Part shown: one piece after another, positions 4,338-14,927 of the stretch
How positions within the stretch are numbered: position 1 is the first letter of the stretch
Layout of the letters: each line of letters starts with the position of its first letter
Virus record (IMG/VR): IMGVR_UViG_3300045988_118519
DNA: 30,548 bases
Origin: a virus
Lineage: Duplodnaviria; Heunggongvirae; Uroviricota; Caudoviricetes
Reading direction: 5' to 3' (one strand)
The notes under the pieces: generated by a model
Told to the model about the DNA's origin: nothing
Databases searched by the model: none
What the model saw: only the letters and a program-made list of their open reading frames with translations
Translations under genes and position numbers: made by a program

Positions 4338-4769
4338 CCAAAGCAGTGGCTGTTGTGGTGACCGGTGCTGATCTCCGGCTTGCGGTTATTTCAGACTCTC
4401 ACGGGCGTTTAATTGCCCCGCCGAACAGCTCTTTTCCGCAATAGCTGCAATGTCTTTCGCGCATCAGCCTGCGCATTCACCACAACGCTGAGAGCACTTA
4501 GCCAGTTACGGCACCACACTTTGTCGCGGTTCCATAAATGCCCTCATCGTTGCACCCTGGTCTCTTCCCAGGCGTCAAACCGAATCGCCACGCTGGTTAG
4601 GCGTCTTATCAGCATCCTCATTGACTTGCACATTCCGGCTACCTGGTTTGTCTGCTCGAGCAAGGAGTGGATTGTCCCCTTTAACGTCCCCAGACCGCTA
4701 ACGACGCATGTGCCATACGCCGTGTTACAACCAAATTTTGTTAGGACCTTGTTTGTTGGTCTGGAAAGA

Positions 4770-4821
4770 AAGATAAAATGAAATTGCGTAATGTGCAAGT
4801 GTTTTGTTGCGAGATATGCAA
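4770..4821 (-). promoter_or_regulatory. Candidate pL with two operator sites (OL)
   Basis: Two 15-bp sites TTGCGTAATGTGCAA (4784-4798) and TTGCGAGATATGCAA (4807-4821); minus-strand -35 TTGCAC (4793-4798), 17-bp spacer, -10 TATCTT (4770-4775). Confidence 0.5.
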
Positions 4822-4834
4822 TAGCGTGAGTAAT

Positions 4835-4857
4835 GAAAAGCCACCTTCTGGTGGCTA
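4835..4857 (-). terminator. Rho-independent terminator downstream of cI-like gene
   Basis: GCCACC-ttct-GGTGGC hairpin followed on minus strand by CUUUUC; lies 20 nt past the cI stop. Confidence 0.65.
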
Positions 4858-4877
4858 ATTGATGTTGAGGTAGGGGG

Positions 4878-5570
4878 TTAATTGTGTCGCTTAAGGGTTT
4901 GTGACTGACTGATTAAGACCTTTCCAAAGACCATAAACCGGTGTTCGTTTTCGCTGGTAATTCCCCATTCGCGGTAAATCTGATTATCAGAAATTACCAG
5001 CAGTTTATCAGGTATCATTTGCAGTCGTTTGACGTAAATTTTATCATCAAAACCAAATACATATATACCATCCCCATCAAACTGATTGATACTGATATCA
5101 ACGAAGATGAGATCTCCTGGCTCAATGGTTGGACACATACTGTCCCCACGAACGTTGATAACTTTAATGTGATTTGCTGGTCGTCCACCAAACATCGATA
5201 CAGCATTATCAGTTCTGTATTCAATGGCATGAATCACATCAATGACATCACCGCCCTGGATAAGGCCATTTCCCGCACTGGCACTGACATCCAGCATTTC
5301 AATACGGAATACATCCTTCACCTGCGCAACATCCTCACTAATACTGTTTTTACATACAGTATTACTTTTGAGGTCTGAGGTAAAGAGATCAGCAATATCA
5401 ACACCTAAGCTCCTGGCAATATTACTCAGGGCTTGTTCAGTGAATTGTTTCTGCTTACCTGTTTCGAGGCGCGAGATATTCGCCGCATCCACTCCTATTG
5501 CTTCAGCGAGATCGGCGATTTTCATGTTCTTCGCCTGGCGAAGTTGTCTGACTCGATTTCCTATGTTCAT
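4878..5570 (-). CDS. cI-like repressor (XRE HTH plus S24 LexA-like peptidase domain), 230 aa
   Basis: N-term RVRQLRQAKNMKIADLAEAIGVDAANISRLE HTH; Ala-Gly site in SASAGNG; GDSM Ser and VKRL Lys dyad; no SD upstream of ATG (possibly leaderless). Confidence 0.9.
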   Translation of the reverse strand: MNIGNRVRQLRQAKNMKIADLAEAIGVDAANISRLETGKQKQFTEQALSNIARSLGVDIADLFTSDLKSNTVCKNSISEDVAQVKDVFRIEMLDVSASAGNGLIQGGDVIDVIHAIEYRTDNAVSMFGGRPANHIKVINVRGDSMCPTIEPGDLIFVDISINQFDGDGIYVFGFDDKIYVKRLQMIPDKLLVISDNQIYREWGITSENEHRFMVFGKVLISQSQTLKRHN

Positions 5571-5590
5571 GCGTTTATTACATTTCTTTA

Positions 5591-5662
5591 TTGCGCGTTA
5601 AGCAAATCAACTTGCGCAAAATATTTGCGTGAAATAATATGCTCATCACGCAATATGTGGAG
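5591..5662. promoter_or_regulatory. OR region with candidate pR and divergent cI promoter
   Basis: TTGCGCGTTAAGCAA (5591-5605) matches the OL site pattern; palindrome CGCAAAATATTTGCG (5615-5629); -35 TTGCGC (5612-5617), 17-bp spacer, -10 TAATAT (5635-5640); GGAGG RBS before cro. Confidence 0.5.
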
Positions 5663-5667
5663 GTTAT

Positions 5668-5928
5668 ATGCAATCACCATTACGGAATGTGCGTAAGGCG
5701 CACGGATTTACTTTGCAGCATGTTGCTGCGGGCGTTCAGGTCAATCCAGCGACGCTGAGTCGTATTGAAAGACTGGAACAAATTCCATCTATCGATCTTG
5801 CAGAACGTCTGGCCAATTTTTTTAAGGGTGAAATCAGCGAAATGCAGATTCTTTATCCGGCACGTTTTCAATCTAGCCAAAACCAGAATGGGTTTAAACC
5901 ACAGGAACAGGAGGTAAGCCGTGGGTAA
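5668..5928 (+). CDS. Cro-like XRE-family HTH regulator, 86 aa
   Basis: VRKAHGFTLQHVAAGVQVNPATLSRIE HTH; divergent from the repressor gene. Confidence 0.8.
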   Translation: MQSPLRNVRKAHGFTLQHVAAGVQVNPATLSRIERLEQIPSIDLAERLANFFKGEISEMQILYPARFQSSQNQNGFKPQEQEVSRG

Positions 5929-6472
5929 GCATCATTGGAAAGTGGAAAAACAACCTGAGTGGTACGTGAAAGCTGTCAGAAAAACTATCGCGGCATTGCC
6001 TGGGGGTTACGCTGAAGCTGCTGACTGGCTGGATGTAACAGAGAACGCTTTATTCAACCGCCTTCGTGCAGATGGCGATCAGATTTTCCCGCTGGGATGG
6101 GCAATGGTTTTACAGCGCGCGGCTGGCACTCACTACATTGCGGATGCTGTCGCACAGTCTGCTGGTGGGGTGTTCGTATCGCTTCCTGAAATTGAGGAAG
6201 TAGAGAACGCCGATATAAACCAGCGCCTGCTGGAAGTCATCGAACAGATCGGGAATTACTCAAAGCAGATTCGTTCGGCAATCGAAGATGGGGTCGTGGA
6301 GCCACACGAGCAGACAGCAATTAATGATGAGTTGTATCTGTCAATTTCGAAGCTCCAGGAGCATGCAGCACTGGTCTACAAAATCTTCTGCGCTCCAGAA
6401 AAGAGTGACGCCCGCGAGTGTGCAGCTCCGGGCGTCGTGGCGTTTTGTGTCTGTGGAGAAACTAACGCATGA
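5921..6472 (+). CDS. CII-like phage regulatory protein (CP76-type), 183 aa
   Basis: GTG start with AGGAGG RBS at 6 nt; position after cro; family assignment from recall. Confidence 0.55.
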   Translation: MGKHHWKVEKQPEWYVKAVRKTIAALPGGYAEAADWLDVTENALFNRLRADGDQIFPLGWAMVLQRAAGTHYIADAVAQSAGGVFVSLPEIEEVENADINQRLLEVIEQIGNYSKQIRSAIEDGVVEPHEQTAINDELYLSISKLQEHAALVYKIFCAPEKSDARECAAPGVVAFCVCGETNA

Positions 6473-6882
6473 ACAGTTTAACGGCAAATAACCGTTTGTC
6501 GCAACAGCTGGTGGTCAGTGTCGCTGAACACCTGTTGTTACGGCATGAATGCAGATTACCAAATCACTTGGCTGTAAGTAACCACAGAGAACTTTACCTG
6601 ACTGTGGGGGGCGAGTTGTGCAGGAACTTAACCGCTGGTTTCGTGACGGAAGAGGGCTTTATGTCCATGTTATTCGTTGGGAGCCAGAAACACAGCGCGT
6701 TATCTATCTTCGCAAAGACTACCCGCATGAGTGCTTTAGTCCTTTGTGGAAATTCAGGCGTGATTTTGTTGAGTGTGAAGGACCACCAGCACATTGATTC
6801 TGCCATTCCGGGACGTTACACTGTTCAGGCACCTTATAAAGCGGGTGCCGGGCGTGGAAACTCGGAATTCACCAAAGCGCAC

Positions 6883-6905
6883 AACCGCGCTCTTGCGGTT
6901 TTTTT
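6883..6905 (+). terminator. Rho-independent terminator-like hairpin AACCGC-gctctt-GCGGTT plus TTTTTTT
   Basis: Read directly; lies inside the long frame that continues into Rha. Confidence 0.5.
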
Positions 6906-7074
6906 GTGTAATGAGCAGCATTACGCCCAAATTATGGTGGGGCGTGCAGGGCCAACTTCGGTTGGGCCGGGTTCTTTGGTGACCGGTATTTCCACCCCTG
7001 TACGTCTCACCACCAATAAGGTCGTGGAAAGCCTTGGTGGTGAGTTATTAAAAATCACCAAAGAGGCTGCCATC

Positions 7075-7620
7075 ATGGCTACGATCCCAACCCTCACTCA
7101 ACCTGAAATTGCCATCGTTGATGGTCAGGCTGTTACTTCATCCCTGGCTGTTGCCAACTTCTTCTCCAAACGTCATGACGATGTACTGAAAAAGATCCGC
7201 ACGCTTGAATGCTCTGCATCATTCACTTCCCGCAATTTTTCGGCGAGTGATTACACCGATTGCACAGGCCGCAAACTACCTTGCTATCAAATAACCCGCG
7301 ACGGCTTTGCGTTTCTTGCTATGGGTTTCACGGGTAAACGTGCTGCCCAGTTCAAAGAGGCATACATCAATGCCTTTAACCAGATGGAGAAACAGCTTTC
7401 AAATCCCTCTGTACTGAGCGACGTTGCACATAACGCCAGCGTTCTCTATTCCTACATTTCATCAATTCATCAGGTCTGGCTGCAGCAGCTTTATCCTATG
7501 TTGGCAAAAGCCGAATCTCCGCTGGCTGTTAGCTTGTATGACTATATTAATGATGCTTCGGCACTGGCCTGCCTCATAAATTTGTCGCTGAACCCTTCAG
7601 AGGTAAGGGGGCGCAAATGA
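7075..7620 (+). CDS. Rha-family phage regulatory protein, 181 aa as called (the frame is open from 6469)
   Basis: IVDGQAVTSSLAVANFFSKRHDDVLKKIRTL matches the Rha N-terminal domain; ATG at 7075 with AGAGG RBS. Confidence 0.7.
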   Translation: MATIPTLTQPEIAIVDGQAVTSSLAVANFFSKRHDDVLKKIRTLECSASFTSRNFSASDYTDCTGRKLPCYQITRDGFAFLAMGFTGKRAAQFKEAYINAFNQMEKQLSNPSVLSDVAHNASVLYSYISSIHQVWLQQLYPMLAKAESPLAVSLYDYINDASALACLINLSLNPSEVRGRK

Positions 7621-7841
7621 TCCGGAATATTTTCAAACGGTTTACCAATCAGACTTTCCGTTGTCCTCGTCCGGGTCAGTGGTACACCACACCTGCAGGG
7701 CATGTTCTACGTGTTAGCCTGGTTGACCGTGAATGTCAGAAGGTGATTTGTGAACCGCTGGGCCGTAGTTACCGCGTCAGTATGCCGCTTATAGCCTTTC
7801 GCTCCGGAAAAAACATGAAGCATCTCGGAGGTGCTGCATGA
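7617..7841 (+). CDS. Hypothetical protein, 74 aa
   Basis: ATGA start/stop overlap with both neighbours (translational coupling); GGGGG RBS. Confidence 0.5.
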   Translation: MIRNIFKRFTNQTFRCPRPGQWYTTPAGHVLRVSLVDRECQKVICEPLGRSYRVSMPLIAFRSGKNMKHLGGAA

Positions 7842-8656
7842 GTATGGAGCTGATGGTTAAAGCGATGAAAATTCGAGTGGGTAATCCATTGCGAAAACTG
7901 GTTCTGATCAAGCTGGCTGATAATGCCAGCGATCAGGGGGAGTGCTGGCCCAGCTACCAGCATATTGCTGACCAGTGCGAGATTAGCAAACGTTCTGTGA
8001 TGAATCATATTGCGGCCCTTTGTGAGTCCGGGCTGGTAAAAAAAGTCACCCGGAAAGGTGAAAAAGGTAACTCAAGTAATATCTATCTCCTTCATCTGGA
8101 TGGTGCAGGAGATTCACTAGGGGGTAGTGCAAATAATTCACTATCTGGTGCAGCAAATTCACCAGGTAGTGCAGGAGTTGCACCAGGGGGTAGTGCAGGA
8201 GATTCACCCAGAACCAGTCACTCTTTTGAACCAGTCAAAGAACCAGTCAATGAACCAATAGCTGTTGGTGCATCAGTTGATGAGTCCGTGCGAGTTCGTT
8301 CAAACCGACCGGAATACTCTCCGGAGTTTGAGCAGGCATGGCTGGTATATCCCAAACGTGCTGGTGGCAATTCAAAATCTGCAGCCTTCAAAGCCTGGAA
8401 AGCCCGTTTGAATGAGGGGGTAAACCCCGAAACCATGCTGGAAGGTGTGAAACGCTACGCGGGCTGGGTATCTGCGATGGGTAACAGCGGCACACAATTT
8501 GTGAAACAGGCTGTTACGTTCTTTGGTCCGGATCGTCATTTCGAAGAATCCTGGGAAGTTCCTGCGGTATCTGCAGCCAGACGCGAGGACCCGTACTTCA
8601 AAGCCAGTTACGACAACGTGGACTACAGCCAGATCCCGGCAGGATTCAGGGGGTGA
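7838..8656 (+). CDS. Phage replication initiator (O-like; N-terminal winged HTH), 272 aa
   Basis: N-term KLADNASDQGECWPSYQHIADQCEISKRSVMNHIAALCESGLV wHTH; internal iteron-like repeats; position after cII/Rha. Confidence 0.6.
   Translation: MSMELMVKAMKIRVGNPLRKLVLIKLADNASDQGECWPSYQHIADQCEISKRSVMNHIAALCESGLVKKVTRKGEKGNSSNIYLLHLDGAGDSLGGSANNSLSGAANSPGSAGVAPGGSAGDSPRTSHSFEPVKEPVNEPIAVGASVDESVRVRSNRPEYSPEFEQAWLVYPKRAGGNSKSAAFKAWKARLNEGVNPETMLEGVKRYAGWVSAMGNSGTQFVKQAVTFFGPDRHFEESWEVPAVSAARREDPYFKASYDNVDYSQIPAGFRG
8102..8260 (+). repeat. Iteron-like direct repeats (candidate replication origin) inside the initiator gene
   Basis: Five copies of about 20 bp with core GTGCAGGAGATTCAC starting near 8102, 8123, 8147, 8166, 8189; then three copies of GAACCAGTCA (8211-8250). 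Confidence 0.6.
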
Positions 8657-8658
8657 TC

Positions 8659-9147
8659 ATGAGTCTTTTGAATGAAGTTCAGAAATTCATTGAAGCCCAT
8701 CCGGGGTGTACTTCCGGAGACATTGCGGATGCTTTTGCAGGTTACTCACGGCAGCGCGTTCTGCAGTCAGCAAGCAAGTTACGTCAGAGTGGGCGTGTGG
8801 CTCACCGTTGTGAAGGAGATACACGCAGACATTTCCCGCGCCTGACTGAGAGAGCGCAGGAACCGGAACCACAACCAGTTCGAGAAACCAGACCTGTGCG
8901 CAATTTCTATGTCGGCACTAACGATCCACGGGTGATTTTGTGCCTGACCCGCCAGGCTGAAGAACTGGAGTCCAGGGGCTTATACCGTCGTGCTGCAACC
9001 GTGTGGATGGCGGCATTCCGTGAAAGCCACTCCCAGCCAGAACGAAACAATTTTCTGGCGCGTCGTGAGCGGTGCTTACGGAAAAGCAGCAAGCGCGCTG
9101 CATCGGGTGAAGAGTGGTATCTGTCAGGGAATTACGTGGGGGCTTAA
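8659..9147 (+). CDS. wHTH protein with ANR/PerC-like C-terminal region, 162 aa
   Basis: C-terminal LTRQAEELESRGLYRRAATVWMAAF resembles the ANR-family motif; family call is tentative. Confidence 0.45.
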   Translation: MSLLNEVQKFIEAHPGCTSGDIADAFAGYSRQRVLQSASKLRQSGRVAHRCEGDTRRHFPRLTERAQEPEPQPVRETRPVRNFYVGTNDPRVILCLTRQAEELESRGLYRRAATVWMAAFRESHSQPERNNFLARRERCLRKSSKRAASGEEWYLSGNYVGA

Positions 9148-9800
9148 TGAGTAATAAATATTGCCAGGCGCTGGTGGAGCTGCGGAACAAACCAGCCCAT
9201 GAACTGAAGGAAGTGGGCGATCAGTGGCGCACGCCGGACAACATTTTCTGGGGAATTAACACCCTGTTTGGCCCGTTTGTTCTGGATCTGTTTACTGACG
9301 GTGATAACGCCAAATGTGCCGCGTATTACACGGCGGAAGATAACGCGCTGGCGCATGACTGGTCAGAACGTCTTGCGGAGCTTAAAGGTGCTGCCTTTGG
9401 TAATCCCCCGTACAGCCGCGCCAGTCAGCATGAGGGGCAATACATCACCGGCATGCGTTACATCATGAAGCATGCCAGTGCCATGCGTGATAAAGGCGGG
9501 CGCTATGTTTTCCTGATCAAAGCTGCCACCAGCGAAGTGTGGTGGCCGGAAGATGCAGACCATATTGCTTTTATTCGCGGGCGTATTGGTTTTGAACTGC
9601 CAGCCTGGTTTATCCCGAAGGACGAGAAGCAGGTGCCGACAGGCGCTTTCTTCGCTGGTGCTATTGCTGTTTTCGACAAGACCTGGAAGGGACCGGCAAT
9701 CAGCTACATCGGGCGTGATGAACTTGAGGCATGTGGTGAGGCGTTTCTGGCGCAGGTTCGCCAGCAGGCGGAAAAACTGGTCAGGGAGATGGCGGCATGA
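9147..9800 (+). CDS. Phage Dam-like N6-adenine DNA methyltransferase, 217 aa
   Basis: Catalytic GNPPY motif; ATG overlaps upstream stop (TAATGA). Confidence 0.8.
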   Translation: MSNKYCQALVELRNKPAHELKEVGDQWRTPDNIFWGINTLFGPFVLDLFTDGDNAKCAAYYTAEDNALAHDWSERLAELKGAAFGNPPYSRASQHEGQYITGMRYIMKHASAMRDKGGRYVFLIKAATSEVWWPEDADHIAFIRGRIGFELPAWFIPKDEKQVPTGAFFAGAIAVFDKTWKGPAISYIGRDELEACGEAFLAQVRQQAEKLVREMAA

Positions 9801-10123
9801 CGACGTTAACTCAATGCCAGCAGCAGGTGCTGGATATGCTGATTTCTTACCAGAAAGAACGTGGCTTCCCGCCAACCAATCAGGAGGTGGCAACCATGCT
9901 GGGATACCGTTCAGTGAATGCAGCGGTGGAACATCTTCGCGCACTGGAGAAAAAAGGCGTCATCACGATAAAGCGTGGCGTGGCCCGGGGTATCACTCTT
10001 CATACCGCGGTGAAGGACGACGACAGCGAGGCGGTCGGGATTATCCGCTCACTGCTTGCCGGTGAGGAAAACGCCAGGCTGCGTGCAACCCACTGGTTAC
10101 ATGAGAGAGGCCTGAAAGTATGA
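9797..10123 (+). CDS. LexA N-terminal DNA-binding domain protein without peptidase domain, 108 aa
   Basis: GFPPTNQEVATMLGYRSVNAAVEHLRALEKKGVI is the classic LexA wHTH; no S24 domain follows. Confidence 0.6.
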   Translation: MTTLTQCQQQVLDMLISYQKERGFPPTNQEVATMLGYRSVNAAVEHLRALEKKGVITIKRGVARGITLHTAVKDDDSEAVGIIRSLLAGEENARLRATHWLHERGLKV

Positions 10124-10509
10124 AGCTGATCCTGCCTTTCCCGCCCAGCGTGAACACGTACTGGCGACACCCCAACAAAGGGGCATTTGCTGGTAAGAGC
10201 CTGATAAGCGCGGCGGGGCGAAAATTTCAGAGCGCGGCGTGCGCAGCAATAGTTGAGCAGTTACGTCGTCTGCCAAAACCAACGTCGGCACCTGCTGCAG
10301 TGGAGATCGTGTTGTTTCCTCCGGATAACCGGATCCGCGATCTGGACAACTATAACAAGGCGCTGTTTGACGCCCTGACCCATGCGGGTGTGTGGGAAGA
10401 CGACAGTCAGGTGAAAAGAATGCTGGTGGAGTGGGGACCGGTTATCCCGGAAGGGAAGGTCGAGATCACTATCAGTAAGTACGAGAAACCGGCGGGTGCA
10501 GCCGCCTGA
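10120..10509 (+). CDS. rusA: RusA Holliday-junction resolvase, 129 aa
   Basis: N-term MKLILPFPPSVNTYW and acidic residues typical of RusA. Confidence 0.85.
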   Translation: MKLILPFPPSVNTYWRHPNKGAFAGKSLISAAGRKFQSAACAAIVEQLRRLPKPTSAPAAVEIVLFPPDNRIRDLDNYNKALFDALTHAGVWEDDSQVKRMLVEWGPVIPEGKVEITISKYEKPAGAAA

Positions 10510-10528
10510 TTAAGAGGAGAAACGAAGT

Positions 10529-11338
10529 ATGAATAATCTGATGGTCATTGATGGTATTGAAGTTCGTCGTGATGCTTATGGGCGTTACAGCCTGAACGAT
10601 CTGCACAGGGCTGCCGGGGGAGAACAAAAAAACCGCCCGAAATACTGGCTCTCCAATAAGCAAACCTGTGAATTGATTGAACAACTTTTCACCGAGGGTG
10701 GAATTCCGCCTCTGGAACAAAATCAACCAGTTAGCGTCATTAATGGCGGAAATAACCAGGGGACGTATGTCTGCAAAGAACTGGTGTATGCCTATGCAAT
10801 GTGGATCAGCCCGTCATTCCATCTGAAGGTGATCCGTACTTTCGACATGGTAACCAGCGCACCGGAAAAATTATCCGGACAGGCTGCTGACAAGATGCAG
10901 GCTGGCGTGATCCTGCTGGACTTTATGCGCCGGGAATTAAATCTGTCTAACTCATCAGTGCTTGGAGCCTGTCAGAAGCTTCAGGAGGCTGTTGGCTTAC
11001 CGAATCTGGCACCGCGCTATGCCATTGATGCTCCTGCTGACGCGCCTGATGGCTCAAGTCGCCCCACGCTGTCGCTGAGTGCACTGCTGAAACAGTATGG
11101 TATCCGCCTGACGGCTAATCAGGCATATCACCAGATGGTGAAGCTGGGGATCGTTGAACAACGCGAACGATACAGCCGTACCGCGATTAACAACATCAAA
11201 AAATTCTGGTCGCTGACGGCGAAAGGCTGCATGTTCGGCAAGAACATCACCAGTCCTGCAAATCCGCGCGAGACGCAGCCGCATTTCTTCGAATCCCGGT
11301 TCCCTGAGCTGTTAAAGCTGCTCGATACCGTTCATTGA
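10529..11338 (+). CDS. KilA-N domain protein, 269 aa
   Basis: N-terminal KilA-N-like region (YSLNDLH, WLSNKQTCELIE, YVCKELVYAYAMWISPSFHLKVI); AAGAGGAG RBS. Confidence 0.7.
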   Translation: MNNLMVIDGIEVRRDAYGRYSLNDLHRAAGGEQKNRPKYWLSNKQTCELIEQLFTEGGIPPLEQNQPVSVINGGNNQGTYVCKELVYAYAMWISPSFHLKVIRTFDMVTSAPEKLSGQAADKMQAGVILLDFMRRELNLSNSSVLGACQKLQEAVGLPNLAPRYAIDAPADAPDGSSRPTLSLSALLKQYGIRLTANQAYHQMVKLGIVEQRERYSRTAINNIKKFWSLTAKGCMFGKNITSPANPRETQPHFFESRFPELLKLLDTVH

Positions 11339-11339
11339 G

Positions 11340-12335
11340 GTGACCGTGAGAGCACTACTGACCCCTGAAATTGCCCCGCGTATGGGGATCGTATTGTTCA
11401 GGCCAGGTTCAGAGCTGATGCCCCTGTTTATGCAGGGGCGTGTCCTGCTGGAGCCTGAGCCGGAACGTTATTCATCTTTCGCCAGTGGTGCCGTTCCGGC
11501 GGCATCACAACCGCTGGCGGATGATCCTGCCGTTCGGGCCGTGTTCCGCAATGAGGCAGTGATCCGTCGTGCTGGTGGAGTGGAATGTCTTGAACGCTGG
11601 TTACTTCGTGAAAAAGGTTGCCAGTGGCCTCATTCCGACTGGCACAGCGAGAACATGACCACAATGCGACACACGCCGGGCGCAATCCGTCTGTGCTGGC
11701 ACTGCGATAACCAGCTGCGCGATCAGTTCACGGAACGGCTGGAATCAATGGCAACGGATAACTGTACCCGCTGGGTGTTGTCTGTTGTGCGTCGGGATCT
11801 CGGTTTTGATGACAGTCACGTTGTGACAATGCCGGAACTGTGCTGGTGGCTGATTCGTAATGACCTGGCGGATGCCTTACCGGAAAGTGCAGCCCGTAAG
11901 GCACTGAGATTACCGAAGCCTGTTGTGCCGTCTGTCACCCGGGAAAGTGACCTTGTGCCTTCGGTTCCTGCCACCAGCATCATCCAGGATAAAGCGAAAA
12001 AGGTGCTGGCGCTGAAAGTGGATCCAGAGTCGCCGGAGTCTTTTATGTTACGCCCAAAACGTCGCCGCTGGGTTAATGAAAAGTACACGCGCTGGGTTAA
12101 GACACAGCCGTGTGCATGTTGTGGAAAGCCTGCTGATGATCCCCACCACCTGATAGGCCATGGTCAGGGTGGAATGGGTACAAAAGCGCATGACCTCTTT
12201 GTGTTGCCTTTGTGCAGAAAGCATCACGACGAGCTGCATGCGGATACCGTGGCATTTGAAGAGAAGTATGGCTCCCAACTGGAGCTGATATTTCGTTTTA
12301 TCGATCGTGCGCTGGCAATTGGCGTGCTGGCCTGA
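11340..12335 (+). CDS. DUF968 protein (YdfU-like), 331 aa
   Basis: C-terminal Cys/His motif [41 protein letters not shown]; start codon uncertain. Confidence 0.55.
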
Positions 12336-12352
12336 TTTTGTGGAGAAAGTTG

Positions 12353-12718
12353 ATGCGTGATATTCAAATGGTTCTTGAACGTTGGGGGGCATGGGTGGCA
12401 AATAATCACGAGGATGTCACCTGGTCGTCTATTGCTGCAGGATTTAAAGGACTAATCCCTTCAAAAGTAAAATCCCGCCCGCAATGTTGTGACGATGACG
12501 CGATGATCATTTGTGGGTGCATGGCTCGCCTGAAAAAGAACAACAGCGATTTGCACGATTTATTAGTGGATTATTATGTAGGTGGTATGACGTTTATGGC
12601 GCTTGCCCGTAAACATGGGCGTTCTGATTGCTGGGTTGGGCGTTTATTGCAAAAGGCTGAAGGTGTAGTTGATGGCATGTTAATGATGTTAGAAATTGAG
12701 CTAGAGATGGATCGTTAG
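12353..12718 (+). CDS. Late-gene antiterminator Q-like protein (phage 82-type family), 121 aa
   Basis: ATG at 12353 with GGAGAAAG RBS; position just before the late region; Cys-rich centre; family from recall. Confidence 0.6.
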
Positions 12719-12760
12719 AAGACCTCTTATTGAGGGGGTAATTGAATCAGTTTAATGTGT

Positions 12761-12795
12761 GGGGAGTCGATTTATTCTCCCCATTTTATTTAATT
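12761..12795 (+). terminator. Hairpin GGGGAG-N10-CTCCCC followed by T-rich tract
   Basis: Read directly; T-tract is interrupted. Confidence 0.35.
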
Positions 12796-12802
12796 AGTTT
12801 AC

Positions 12803-13249
12803 TTAAGGTTTTAATTCATCAAGACGTTGTTGGATAGTGTTTTTGCTTGCGTTGTCTGTTATAGCCATTTGTTGTACTTGCCCCATTGCCATTTGAGTTT
12901 CCATCCACATATCGGCCCACACTTTTGTATCGTTATTAACTTGAGCGATAGTAAATCTGACTTTTGATACCGGGGTTGTTGAATAGGCATTTCCGATTAA
13001 CATTTGTCCAAAAACAGCAGAGCCGCCTTCCAGTTCTTTACCACATATAACACTGCTGTTATCCGCGTTGTAAATTATCAACCCTCTACTATTGCAGTAA
13101 TTCACAAGGGCATCTTTGACTTTATCTTTTGTCGTATTTTGATAAACCCCCTCAGGTTTTCCTGATTGAGTTTTCTTTATCAATGGTACGGAAGAAGTAC
13201 AACCTGAAATGATAGTTGCGCTAAGTAATAGTACAGTCATTTTATTCAT
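12803..13249 (-). CDS. Lipoprotein of unknown function, 148 aa (cargo gene)
   Basis: Signal peptide with lipobox MNKMTVLLLSATIISGC; opposite strand to all flanking phage genes; AT-rich. Confidence 0.7.
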   Translation of the reverse strand: MNKMTVLLLSATIISGCTSSVPLIKKTQSGKPEGVYQNTTKDKVKDALVNYCNSRGLIIYNADNSSVICGKELEGGSAVFGQMLIGNAYSTTPVSKVRFTIAQVNNDTKVWADMWMETQMAMGQVQQMAITDNASKNTIQQRLDELKP

Positions 13250-13314
13250 GTTTCTTATCCATTGCTAAGGGTATACCCACACAATTATTTTTATTGGAGA
13301 TGAATAATCAACCG

Positions 13315-13342
13315 TTTACAATCGTAAAAAATCAAATATGCT
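13315..13342 (+). promoter_or_regulatory. Candidate late promoter pR'
   Basis: -35 TTTACA (13315-13320), 16-bp spacer, -10 TATGCT (13337-13342). Confidence 0.4.
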
Positions 13343-13371
13343 GTTAAGAGTGGTTACTTCGCCACACAACT

Positions 13372-13398
13372 TAAACCCGCCGCTGAGCGGTTTTTTTT
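13372..13398 (+). terminator. Candidate tR' terminator (Q target), giving a short 6S-like RNA of about 50 nt
   Basis: Hairpin AAACCCGC-CGCUGAGCGG followed by UUUUUUUU (13391-13398). Confidence 0.5.
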
Positions 13399-13496
13399 GT
13401 ACCTGTAAACTTGGTGCAGTACAGTAAACACGCTGGTGGTCGTGAATACTGACTTTTTATCTTGCTGGCTTTTTAGACAAGAGTTATTGGTATGTC

Positions 13497-13724
13497 ATGT
13501 TAACCAGAAGGGAAAAAGACATGCTAAAACAGCAAGATATGACAGAAACCGCCGCCGCAGTCCTTCATTTCTTACCTGCTGACAAGTGGGTAACGCCACG
13601 CATGATGACGAGAACTACCGGAGTAAGCGAAGCCCGGTGCCAGTTAATACTGACTCAGTTAGTTCTGGCGGGTCTGGCGAAGGATAACGGCGGGTACGGG
13701 AATAAATTCAGACGCTGCCAGTAA
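13497..13724 (+). CDS. Small wHTH-like protein of unknown function, 75 aa (start may be 13521)
   Basis: ORF just downstream of the tR' candidate; wHTH-like stretch WVTPRMMTRTTGVSEARCQLILTQLVLAGLA. Confidence 0.45.
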   Translation: MLTRREKDMLKQQDMTETAAAVLHFLPADKWVTPRMMTRTTGVSEARCQLILTQLVLAGLAKDNGGYGNKFRRCQ

Positions 13725-13874
13725 TGGCGGTTTCCTGCTGTGAAAATGGGCGGCTGGTGGGTGTTGGTAGCACCTGCCAGCCATTCGCTCATGCTTACTG
13801 GTCACAAGCGAACCACGGCCCACTGCTTTAGCGCAAAAGCAGAGTGAGCCTACCAGAGTTACGCTTACTGATCC

Positions 13875-14927
13875 ATGAAAAATACTGTAAAAATAAACAG
13901 TGTTGATTTAATCAACGCTGATTGCCTGCATTTTATTCAGTCCCTGCCTGATGATTCCATTGACCTGATTGTTACCGATCCGCCGTACTTCAAGGTGAAA
14001 CCCAACGGCTGGGACAATCAGTGGAAAGGGGACGAAGATTACCTTAAGTGGCTGGACCACTGTCTGGCCCAGTTCTGGCGGGTGTTAAAACCTGCCGGAA
14101 GCCTTTACCTGTTCTGTGGGCATCGCCTGGCATCTGATATTGAGATCATGATGCGTGAACGTTTCAACGTGCTTAACCATATCATCTGGGCGAAGCCGTC
14201 CGGACGTTGGAATGGGTGTAATAAAGAAAGTCTGCGTGCATATTTTCCTGCCACAGAGCGCGTTCTGTTTGCTGAACATTACCAGGGGCCATATCGCGGC
14301 AAAAGTGACGGCTATGCGGCAAAAGAAAGGGAACTCAAACAGCACATAATGGCACCGCTGATTTCGTATTTCAGGGATGCTCGTGCCGAACTGGGTATAA
14401 CGGCAAAACAAATTGCCGAAGCCACAGGTAAGAAAAATATGGTTTCCCACTGGTTTGGTGCCAGTCAGTGGCAGTTGCCGAATGAGGCTGACTACCGGAA
14501 GTTACAGGCACTGTTTTCCCGTATAGCGGCAGAGAAGTTTCAGGAACAACAACTGGAACAACCACACCACCAGCTGGTGGCATCTTATGATTCACTGAAT
14601 CGCAAATATTCTGAATTGCTGGATGAGTTTAAATCTCTCCGGCGCTATTTCTCCGTATCAGTCTCCGTGCCTTATACCGATGTCTGGATGCATAAACCCG
14701 TTCAGTTCTACCCGGGGAAACATCCGTGTGAGAAACCGGCGGATATGCTCAGGCAAATAATCAATGCCAGTAGTCGACCAGGTGATCTGGTTGCTGATTT
14801 TTTTATGGGATCCGGTTCCACAATAAAAGCAGCAATGGCGCTGGGGCGTCGGGCCTTAGGTGTTGAGCTTGAGTCAGAGCGGTTTAACCAGACAGTGAAA
14901 GAGATAAACGAGCTGGTGGGGAAATAA
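13875..14927 (+). CDS. Beta-class DNA methyltransferase (N6-adenine or N4-cytosine), 350 aa
   Basis: Motif IV TDPPYF near N-terminus and motif [10 protein letters not shown] near C-terminus (beta-class order) with a long central insert. Confidence 0.85.

Follow-up and report, generated by a model that had tools for sequence, protein, structure and literature searches.

In Escherichia coli, prophage induction, Shiga toxin release and much of the stress-induced mutagenesis are switched on by the SOS response. A LexA derivative of known function in this response is gp6 of the phage GIL01 (Betatectivirus), a truncated LexA homologue whose gene lies in an early operon under LexA control; it binds GaCACAnnTGTGaC, a palindrome other than the LexA box, and activates the late promoter P3 (PMC6182141). 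Here, we analyzed a 30,548-nucleotide stretch of phage DNA (Caudoviricetes; IMG/VR record IMGVR_UViG_3300045988_118519), referred to below as the window, which encodes a mini-LexA protein of 108 residues, here named LexN. We propose, tentatively and with a probability of about 0.45, that LexN replaces LexA at SOS-like boxes as a surrogate insensitive to RecA, the binding to these boxes being predicted from its sequence. A common phage protein with a LexA head that RecA cannot remove would be a built-in SOS off-switch or rewiring device.

Like gp6, LexN is a phage-encoded protein built on a LexA DNA-binding domain without a protease; gp6 lies in an SOS-controlled early unit, and LexN, in lineages other than that of the window, in operons headed by SOS boxes. 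In the window, SOS control of LexN would be indirect, through a cleavable CI repressor; gp6 comprises 66 aa without a tail, whereas LexN has an added tail; and the operator and the activator role have been demonstrated for gp6, while any operator of LexN is hypothetical. No alignment of LexN with gp6 was obtained by BLASTP at E ≤ 100, and the two therefore look like independent captures, of a Bacillus-type and an enterobacterial LexA, respectively. A DNA-binding activity that activated RecA cannot remove, which is the behavior predicted for LexN, is exhibited by LexA (Ind-) mutants and by the LexA 1-84 fragment, but these are laboratory mutants or short-lived products, while LexN is natural and carries its own C-terminal module. 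The free N-terminal domain of LexA binds weakly without the dimerization domain and is cleared by ClpXP. DinI and GIL01 gp7 target RecA or LexA itself and are not known to carry a LexA-type DNA-binding domain. Their likeness to LexN is that of small phage-carried proteins reshaping LexA-dependent control after DNA damage (PMC6182141, PMC9700832).

The gene and the parts of its product are as follows.

9797 to 10123, plus strand: mini-LexA gene (LexN), 108 aa, ATG start, stop codon included; from the open reading frame (ORF) list, Pfam, PHROG and the ratio of nonsynonymous to synonymous polymorphism (pN/pS).
9797 to 10003, plus strand: LexA-type winged helix-turn-helix (HTH), residues 1 to 69, with helices 6-22, 28-35 and 40-52 and strands 56-58 and 66-68; from AlphaFold2 and Foldseek.
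9914 to 9952, plus strand: recognition helix, residues 40 to 52 (VNAAVEHLRALEK); from the alignment to LexA.
10019 to 10105, plus strand: conserved helical hairpin, residues 75 to 103 (helices 75-87 and 93-103); from AlphaFold2 and conservation in relatives.

The original prediction had assigned the 108-aa ORF a LexA N-terminal winged HTH, and this assignment is borne out by both sequence and predicted structure. Residues 1 to 65 align with the whole Pfam LexA_DNA_bind profile (PF01726, positions 1 to 65 of 65) at 69 bits and E=2.9e-19, against a gathering cut-off of 23.7 bits. BLASTP against residues 1 to 86 of E. coli LexA yielded 43% identity (E=8e-22); the best PDB sequence matches of LexN are all LexA chains, and these yield the same alignment. 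In the AlphaFold2 model, built on a 20-sequence alignment (mean predicted local distance difference test score [pLDDT] of 83), the winged-helix part reaches a pLDDT of about 88 to 89 over most of its length. As seen by Foldseek, the first 67 to 68 residues superpose on LexA 1lea and 3jso, the latter DNA bound, with a root-mean-square deviation (rmsd) of 1.0 to 1.3 Å and 50 to 51% identity. Taking sequence and structure comparisons with E. coli LexA (PDB 1lea, 1jhh and 3jso) together, the winged helix shows 43 to 51% identity and the same fold.

The remainder of LexA is missing. No Peptidase_S24 match was obtained for LexN with Pfam, and the chain ends at residue 108; against the LexA equivalog model TIGR00498, LexN scores 70.8 bits, below the cut-off of 110.95, and only model positions 1 to 91 of 203 align. 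The absence of the autoprotease domain, claimed from the first inspection, thus holds, and with it the resistance to RecA-stimulated cleavage, since without S24 self-cleavage is impossible. Compared with E. coli LexA, LexN lacks S24, the residues Ser119 and Lys156 and a conserved Ala-Gly site, has Val in place of E44, and carries a 35-residue helical hairpin in place of the dimerizing and cleaving domain; moreover, LexA is constitutive, whereas LexN is phage encoded and expected after SOS induction. The alignment to LexA residues 1 to 85 that had been proposed as a check misses the conserved C-terminal hairpin: LexN is not simply LexA 1-85. PHROG 362 (“transcriptional repressor”), the group of SfV orf42 and the mEp460 protein, covers residues 1 to 108 with profile positions 1 to 106 of 106, tail included (E=1.1e-59).

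The length of this tail and its pattern, EAxxxIRALLAxxxxARxRAxxWLxxxG, are kept in relatives of 41 to 52% identity, found as protein-cluster members from Cronobacter, Kosakonia, Enterobacter, Cedecea, Klebsiella and Salmonella, and A97 and L101 are nearly invariant in the alignment. The tail helices are modeled with a pLDDT of 86 to 87, and the linker at residues 69 to 74 has low confidence (below 50 at 71 to 74). No match was found when the tail alone was searched against Pfam and PDB sequences. In the model, therefore, the tail looks like a new small module with a presumed role in dimerization or partner binding, and most plausibly the hairpin would replace the C-terminal domain of LexA as the dimerization module. 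The layout of winged helix, flexible linker and helices is like that of winged-helix repressors dimerizing via C-terminal helices, such as MecI and MntR. These are weak whole-chain fold matches (BlaI/MecI and MntR/DtxR, Foldseek ranks 14 to 45) with rmsd values of 6 to 11 Å and no sequence relationship to LexN, and the analogy is one of architecture only. A functional LexA cleavage site in the tail was also considered and rejected: A88-G89 of LexN aligns with A84-G85 of LexA but is not conserved, relatives having LLANEE or LLVGEE at this position, and AlphaFold2 predicts the segment to be helical.

Next, the residues that would read DNA were compared. The contacts of LexA helix 3 with DNA given in PMC3091678 include Ser39, Asn41, Ala42, Glu44 and Glu45. 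Out of these five, LexN keeps S39 (just before the helix), N41, A42 and E45, together with the wing motif RGI, and replaces LexA E44 with Val. In the subfamily alignment, neither S39 nor the wing motif R64-G65-I66 varies, and N41 is nearly invariant. Judged from these alignments, the E. coli LexN allele is the family member closest to LexA in helix 3, and the recognition helix varies more across the family than would be expected if all members read the invariant host SOS box.

The genomic settings of the family link it to SOS circuitry, a conclusion that is supported by operon context. Two settings were distinguished. The first (type I), found in the window phage, mEp390, and Cronobacter, Enterobacter and other prophages, places LexN in the rightward early operon, after a replication gene with or without PerC, Dam or a C5-methylase; the gene is coupled, and RusA is next. 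The second (type II) occurs in Cedecea/Enterobacter, Salmonella and Klebsiella phages, where a terminator is followed by a promoter with a canonical SOS box and then by the operon (DinI)-orfX (PHROG 1813)-LexN-orfY (PHROG 1212)-(RusA)-DUF968-Q. Examples, all from the nin region of Rac-like phages, are loci L177 (5186-6500), L176 (1-1169), L167 (6531-7608) and L169 (6476-7357). The product of orfX has 75 to 96 aa and that of orfY 67 aa in the two loci checked, and neither has a homologue in the window. In the Klebsiella phages, DinI is the first gene of the LexN operon. 

Type II boxes were scored with a position weight matrix made from E. coli SOS boxes, and were counted at 16 bits or more within 1.6 kb upstream of LexN. 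In two sets of type II IMG/VR loci, 26/32 and 70/73 (96/105 together) bear such a box, mostly 500 to 700 nt upstream of LexN and with at least 14 different box sequences per set. The chance level is about 0.04 per 30 kb of shuffled sequence, or about 0.002 per locus. If the type II box works as a LexA operator, then Q, and hence the late genes, would be directly LexA controlled in those phages. RusA, DUF968 and Q come after LexN in most lineages examined, despite their differing immunity and replication modules.

In the window, LexN is a translationally coupled member of the rightward early (PR) operon, and no promoter-like site was found directly upstream of it. The phage repressor CI of the window has an S24 domain as detected by Pfam, and with CI of this type and LexN in the PR operon, LexN is expected to be expressed once CI has been cleaved in a RecA-dependent manner, or upon infection. 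Hence, in both settings LexN should be made while host LexA is being destroyed.

To SOS boxes in the window itself we then turned, and four perfect CTGT-N8-ACAG sites were found against 0.41 expected. Counting half-sites as inverted, everted and direct CTGT/ACAG repeats at spacings of 0 to 20, only spacing 8 was enriched among the inverted CTGT-N-ACAG pairs (4 versus 0.38 expected); the direct repeat ACAG-N14-ACAG was equally enriched in the window (4 versus 0.38 expected). By the position weight matrix, two of the four perfect sites score like strong E. coli boxes, and these give two candidate targets.

5339 to 5364: candidate target 1, an element of 26 bp whose 9-nt arms are perfectly palindromic, TAATACTGT-N8-ACAGTATTA, in the linker codons of cI (4878 to 5570, minus strand).
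13883 to 13902: candidate target 2, SOS box TACTGTAAAAATAAACAGTG, 22.1 bits, overlapping the beginning of an N6/N4 DNA methylase ORF in the late region (13875 to 14927).

The cI element contains a perfect SOS box at 5342-5361 (24.7 bits). This box is kept in SfII and also in a cI of 71% identity (locus L179, 1836-1855) whose flanking linker codons have diverged, and in these comparisons it is an island of conservation. No promoter-like site was found near it, and the element may be a LexA roadblock or a LexN site within cI. LexN is present in all 13 phage records that have the cI allele with the internal box and in 56/62 IMG/VR loci with it, and the divergent 71%-identity cI with the box pairs with a LexN of 49% identity. 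The methylase box lies about 500 bp past the presumed PR'/tR' (about 13315-13400), with a second palindrome abutting at 13895-13923; it is shared with Citrobacter phage phiNP and, in a variant form, with Klebsiella phage Kp4866-6. A palindrome scan of 4700-14100 returned only CI operators, SOS boxes and small chance palindromes. An obligatory link between LexN and phage-borne boxes was considered and rejected, since many LexN loci are boxless, the methylase box occurs without LexN, and the box-bearing cI is occasionally found without LexN. In some close relatives, an SOS box (TACTGTATTTATGAACAGTG) is present in the gap between RusA and KilA-N (L055, 7871-7890; also L020, L052, L056 and L076), which suggests a LexA-controlled KilA-N (antirepressor-like) gene in those relatives; the window KilA-N gene (10529-11338) follows RusA without an SOS box between them.

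The original prediction, that the protein could bind SOS boxes and modulate the host SOS response or prophage induction, is supported in part, its SOS-box binding being conjectural. Under the surrogate reading, LexN would be made only after SOS induction of the prophage, would dimerize through its C-terminal hairpin, and the dimer would bind sites of the CTGT-N8-ACAG type. Activated RecA destroys LexA and CI, and LexN could then re-occupy SOS boxes, both those of host SOS genes and phage-borne ones such as the cI-internal and late-methylase boxes. The predicted outcome would be that SOS-dependent expression is damped or ended during lytic growth and that renewed cI transcription is blocked. 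A bolder form, in which LexN is a natural “uncleavable LexA” that shuts the host SOS regulon and also sits on the cI box, preventing new synthesis of the phage repressor and making induction irreversible, we regard as doubtful, at odds of roughly one to three. If true, the shut-down would extend to toxins induced by SOS, to colicins and to antirepressors that LexA controls in rival prophages.

Several observations weigh against the surrogate reading. Position 44 is Val in the window LexN and never Glu anywhere in the subfamily, and 4 of the 11 aligned lineages have D, G, L or I instead of E45, with one further helix variant also having Leu. The boxes upstream of type II operons are canonical whatever the LexN helix and show no covariation with LexN, and they are therefore tuned to host LexA. 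Indeed, host LexA alone accounts for every SOS box found. Linkage across 4.4 kb may be enough to explain why LexN and the cI allele occur together, phiNP has the methylase box but no LexN, and no strong phage-borne box was found at 8 of the 21 LexN loci with a full 10 kb on each side. LexN is also dispensable: in loci L120, L140 and L166, Dam directly abuts RusA and LexN is precisely absent. Finally, gp6, the sole characterized truncated LexA homologue, reads a different palindrome and activates transcription.

The main alternative is that LexN is a gp6-like, phage-specific transcription factor, a LexA derivative that reads its own operator and activates or represses a phage promoter as a timer of SOS-coupled development. 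The operon logic of GIL01 gp6, with its LexA-controlled early operon, matches the SOS-box operons of the LexN family, and positions 42 to 46 vary (AAVEH, TIAGH, AATDM, AVLLH, TVFIH, AVALH) while the remainder of the domain is constant, as is the host SOS box. A variable helix without box covariation favors an own operator for at least part of the family. However, no candidate operator emerged: the early region has no conserved palindrome besides the SOS boxes, and no other inverted half-site spacing is enriched. In addition, the E. coli allele is the most LexA-like in helix 3, with four of the five contacts named above, and late control in LexN phages is already supplied by Q. We consider this alternative the strongest rival, less likely than the surrogate reading but to be taken seriously. 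If it is true, LexN would be a second, independent case of phages making LexA a private regulator, and the first in lambdoid phages.

A more remote explanation takes the conserved surroundings as the clue and makes LexN a DNA-targeting or regulatory partner of the nin-region enzymes (RusA and the HNH-like DUF968) instead of a transcription factor. The order LexN-RusA-DUF968-Q is kept across lineages differing in immunity and replication modules, but it may merely reflect shared nin-module ancestry, and RusA is absent from the Klebsiella LexN operons examined. In one protein, P0158 (L170, 7001-7723), the LexN winged helix is fused to the HNH-like C-terminal domain of DUF968, and the locus lacks RusA; nevertheless, the fusion is a singleton in a decayed prophage with a split recA-like gene and is probably a deletion. 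Being a singleton from one contig, it was discounted as a sign of a functional LexN/DUF968 link, and a partnership of this kind seems improbable.

More improbable still is that LexN serves as a pseudo-substrate or decoy, with the Ala-Gly of its tail docking in the active site of an S24 protein (LexA, CI or UmuD) and modulating cleavage. Although the BLASTP and TIGR00498 alignments do run through the LexA linker (VGRVAAGEP in LexA versus VGIIRSLLAGEE in LexN), the Ala-Gly pair gives way to the LLANEE and LLVGEE variants in relatives, and its segment is predicted helical, not extended.

LexN is not a chance ORF and is under purifying selection, because pN/pS is 0.105 over 69 distinct alleles and stop codons occur in 0/69. 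At 90% identity or more, 2233 of 5426 complete E. coli genomes (41%) carry the 327-bp gene, at 2855 places, almost all of them chromosomal, and RefSeq names its product “LexA family transcriptional regulator” (WP_000210170). Fifty phage records carry the gene at 94.8 to 98.8% DNA identity, including SfV (orf42, “unknown”), SfII, SfIV, mEp460 (“LexA DNA binding domain protein”), cdtI and phages encoding Shiga toxins (Stx) 2a, 2c and 2k, that is, Stx2a, Stx2c and Stx2k phages. That LexN is a functionless, decaying remnant of a captured lexA is hardly credible: it is dispensable and precisely absent from some otherwise identical phages, but the selection analysis effectively excludes decay, the whole protein, tail included, is kept across Enterobacteriaceae genera at identities as low as 41%, and the gene is found in those 2233 E. 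coli genomes.

A literature search for a functional study of LexN, within the library available, returned annotation-level mentions only (for example, pham 237 in PMC8136144). Thousands of genomes already have the gene annotated and its domain is recognized routinely, so the bare observation is not new; what is added here are the C-terminal hairpin and its conservation, the consistent loss of Glu44, the operons headed by an SOS box, in some cases with DinI, and the conserved SOS box in cI. If the bolder “uncleavable LexA” form of the surrogate reading is true, LexN could shape Shiga toxin output and the hierarchy among co-resident prophages, given its presence in the clinically relevant Stx2a, Stx2c and Stx2k phages and in 41% of E. 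coli genomes. The question is directly testable, as LexN is a small, non-essential gene in the manipulable phages mEp460, SfV and SfII.

The immediate neighborhood of the gene in the window contains the following features.

9114 to 9800, plus strand: Dam-family N6-adenine methyltransferase gene (Pfam PF05869, E=1.1e-45), its stop overlapping the LexN start (ATGA).
9783 to 9789, plus strand: Shine-Dalgarno sequence AGGGAGA, within the 3' end of the Dam gene and 8 nt before the LexN ATG; from sequence inspection.
10120 to 10509, plus strand: RusA Holliday-junction resolvase gene (Pfam PF05866, E=6e-15), its start overlapping the LexN stop (ATGA).

Translational coupling between the methyltransferase and RusA had been claimed from the ATGA overlaps, and both are present. 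The Dam TGA (9798-9800) shares bases with the LexN ATG (9797-9799) in gcATGAcg, and the LexN TGA (10121-10123) with the RusA ATG (10120-10122) in gtATGAag, each a 4-base overlap. The order of genes in the window is cI (HTH and S24), cro, cII (CP76), Ash/Rha, a replication initiator (HTH_36/DnaD-like), PerC, Dam and LexN, followed by RusA, KilA-N, DUF968/HNH, Q and the lysis genes. The position between the replication gene and the antiterminator Q agrees with the nin-like region to which the original prediction had assigned LexN. In locus L117, PerC abuts LexN and Dam is absent, and PerC, Dam, LexN and RusA appear to behave as separately exchangeable cassettes.

The PerC-family activator gene (PF06069; window 8653-9147) lies two genes upstream of LexN in the same coupled string. 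PerC homologues (Pch) regulate the locus of enterocyte effacement (LEE) virulence island in enterohemorrhagic E. coli (EHEC). In many RefSeq phage records, the Dam-family methylase (9114-9800 in the window) is called “phosphoadenosine phosphosulfate reductase” by PHROG-derived annotation; given the clear Pfam Dam match, this label is probably a misannotation that has spread. A 148-aa ORF on the minus strand (12803-13249), located between Q and the presumed late promoter, has no Pfam match and is flanked by terminator-like hairpins, a location typical of a moron. PADLOC gave no meaningful defense-system match. Finally, in a library of 1.84 billion proteins, we observed proteins in which the LexA_DNA_bind domain occurs twice in tandem and S24 is absent (P0132, P0133, P0149, P0152, P0155 and others), one of which, P0155, is fused to a PTPS domain. 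These tandem proteins may be single-chain “dimeric” LexA heads.

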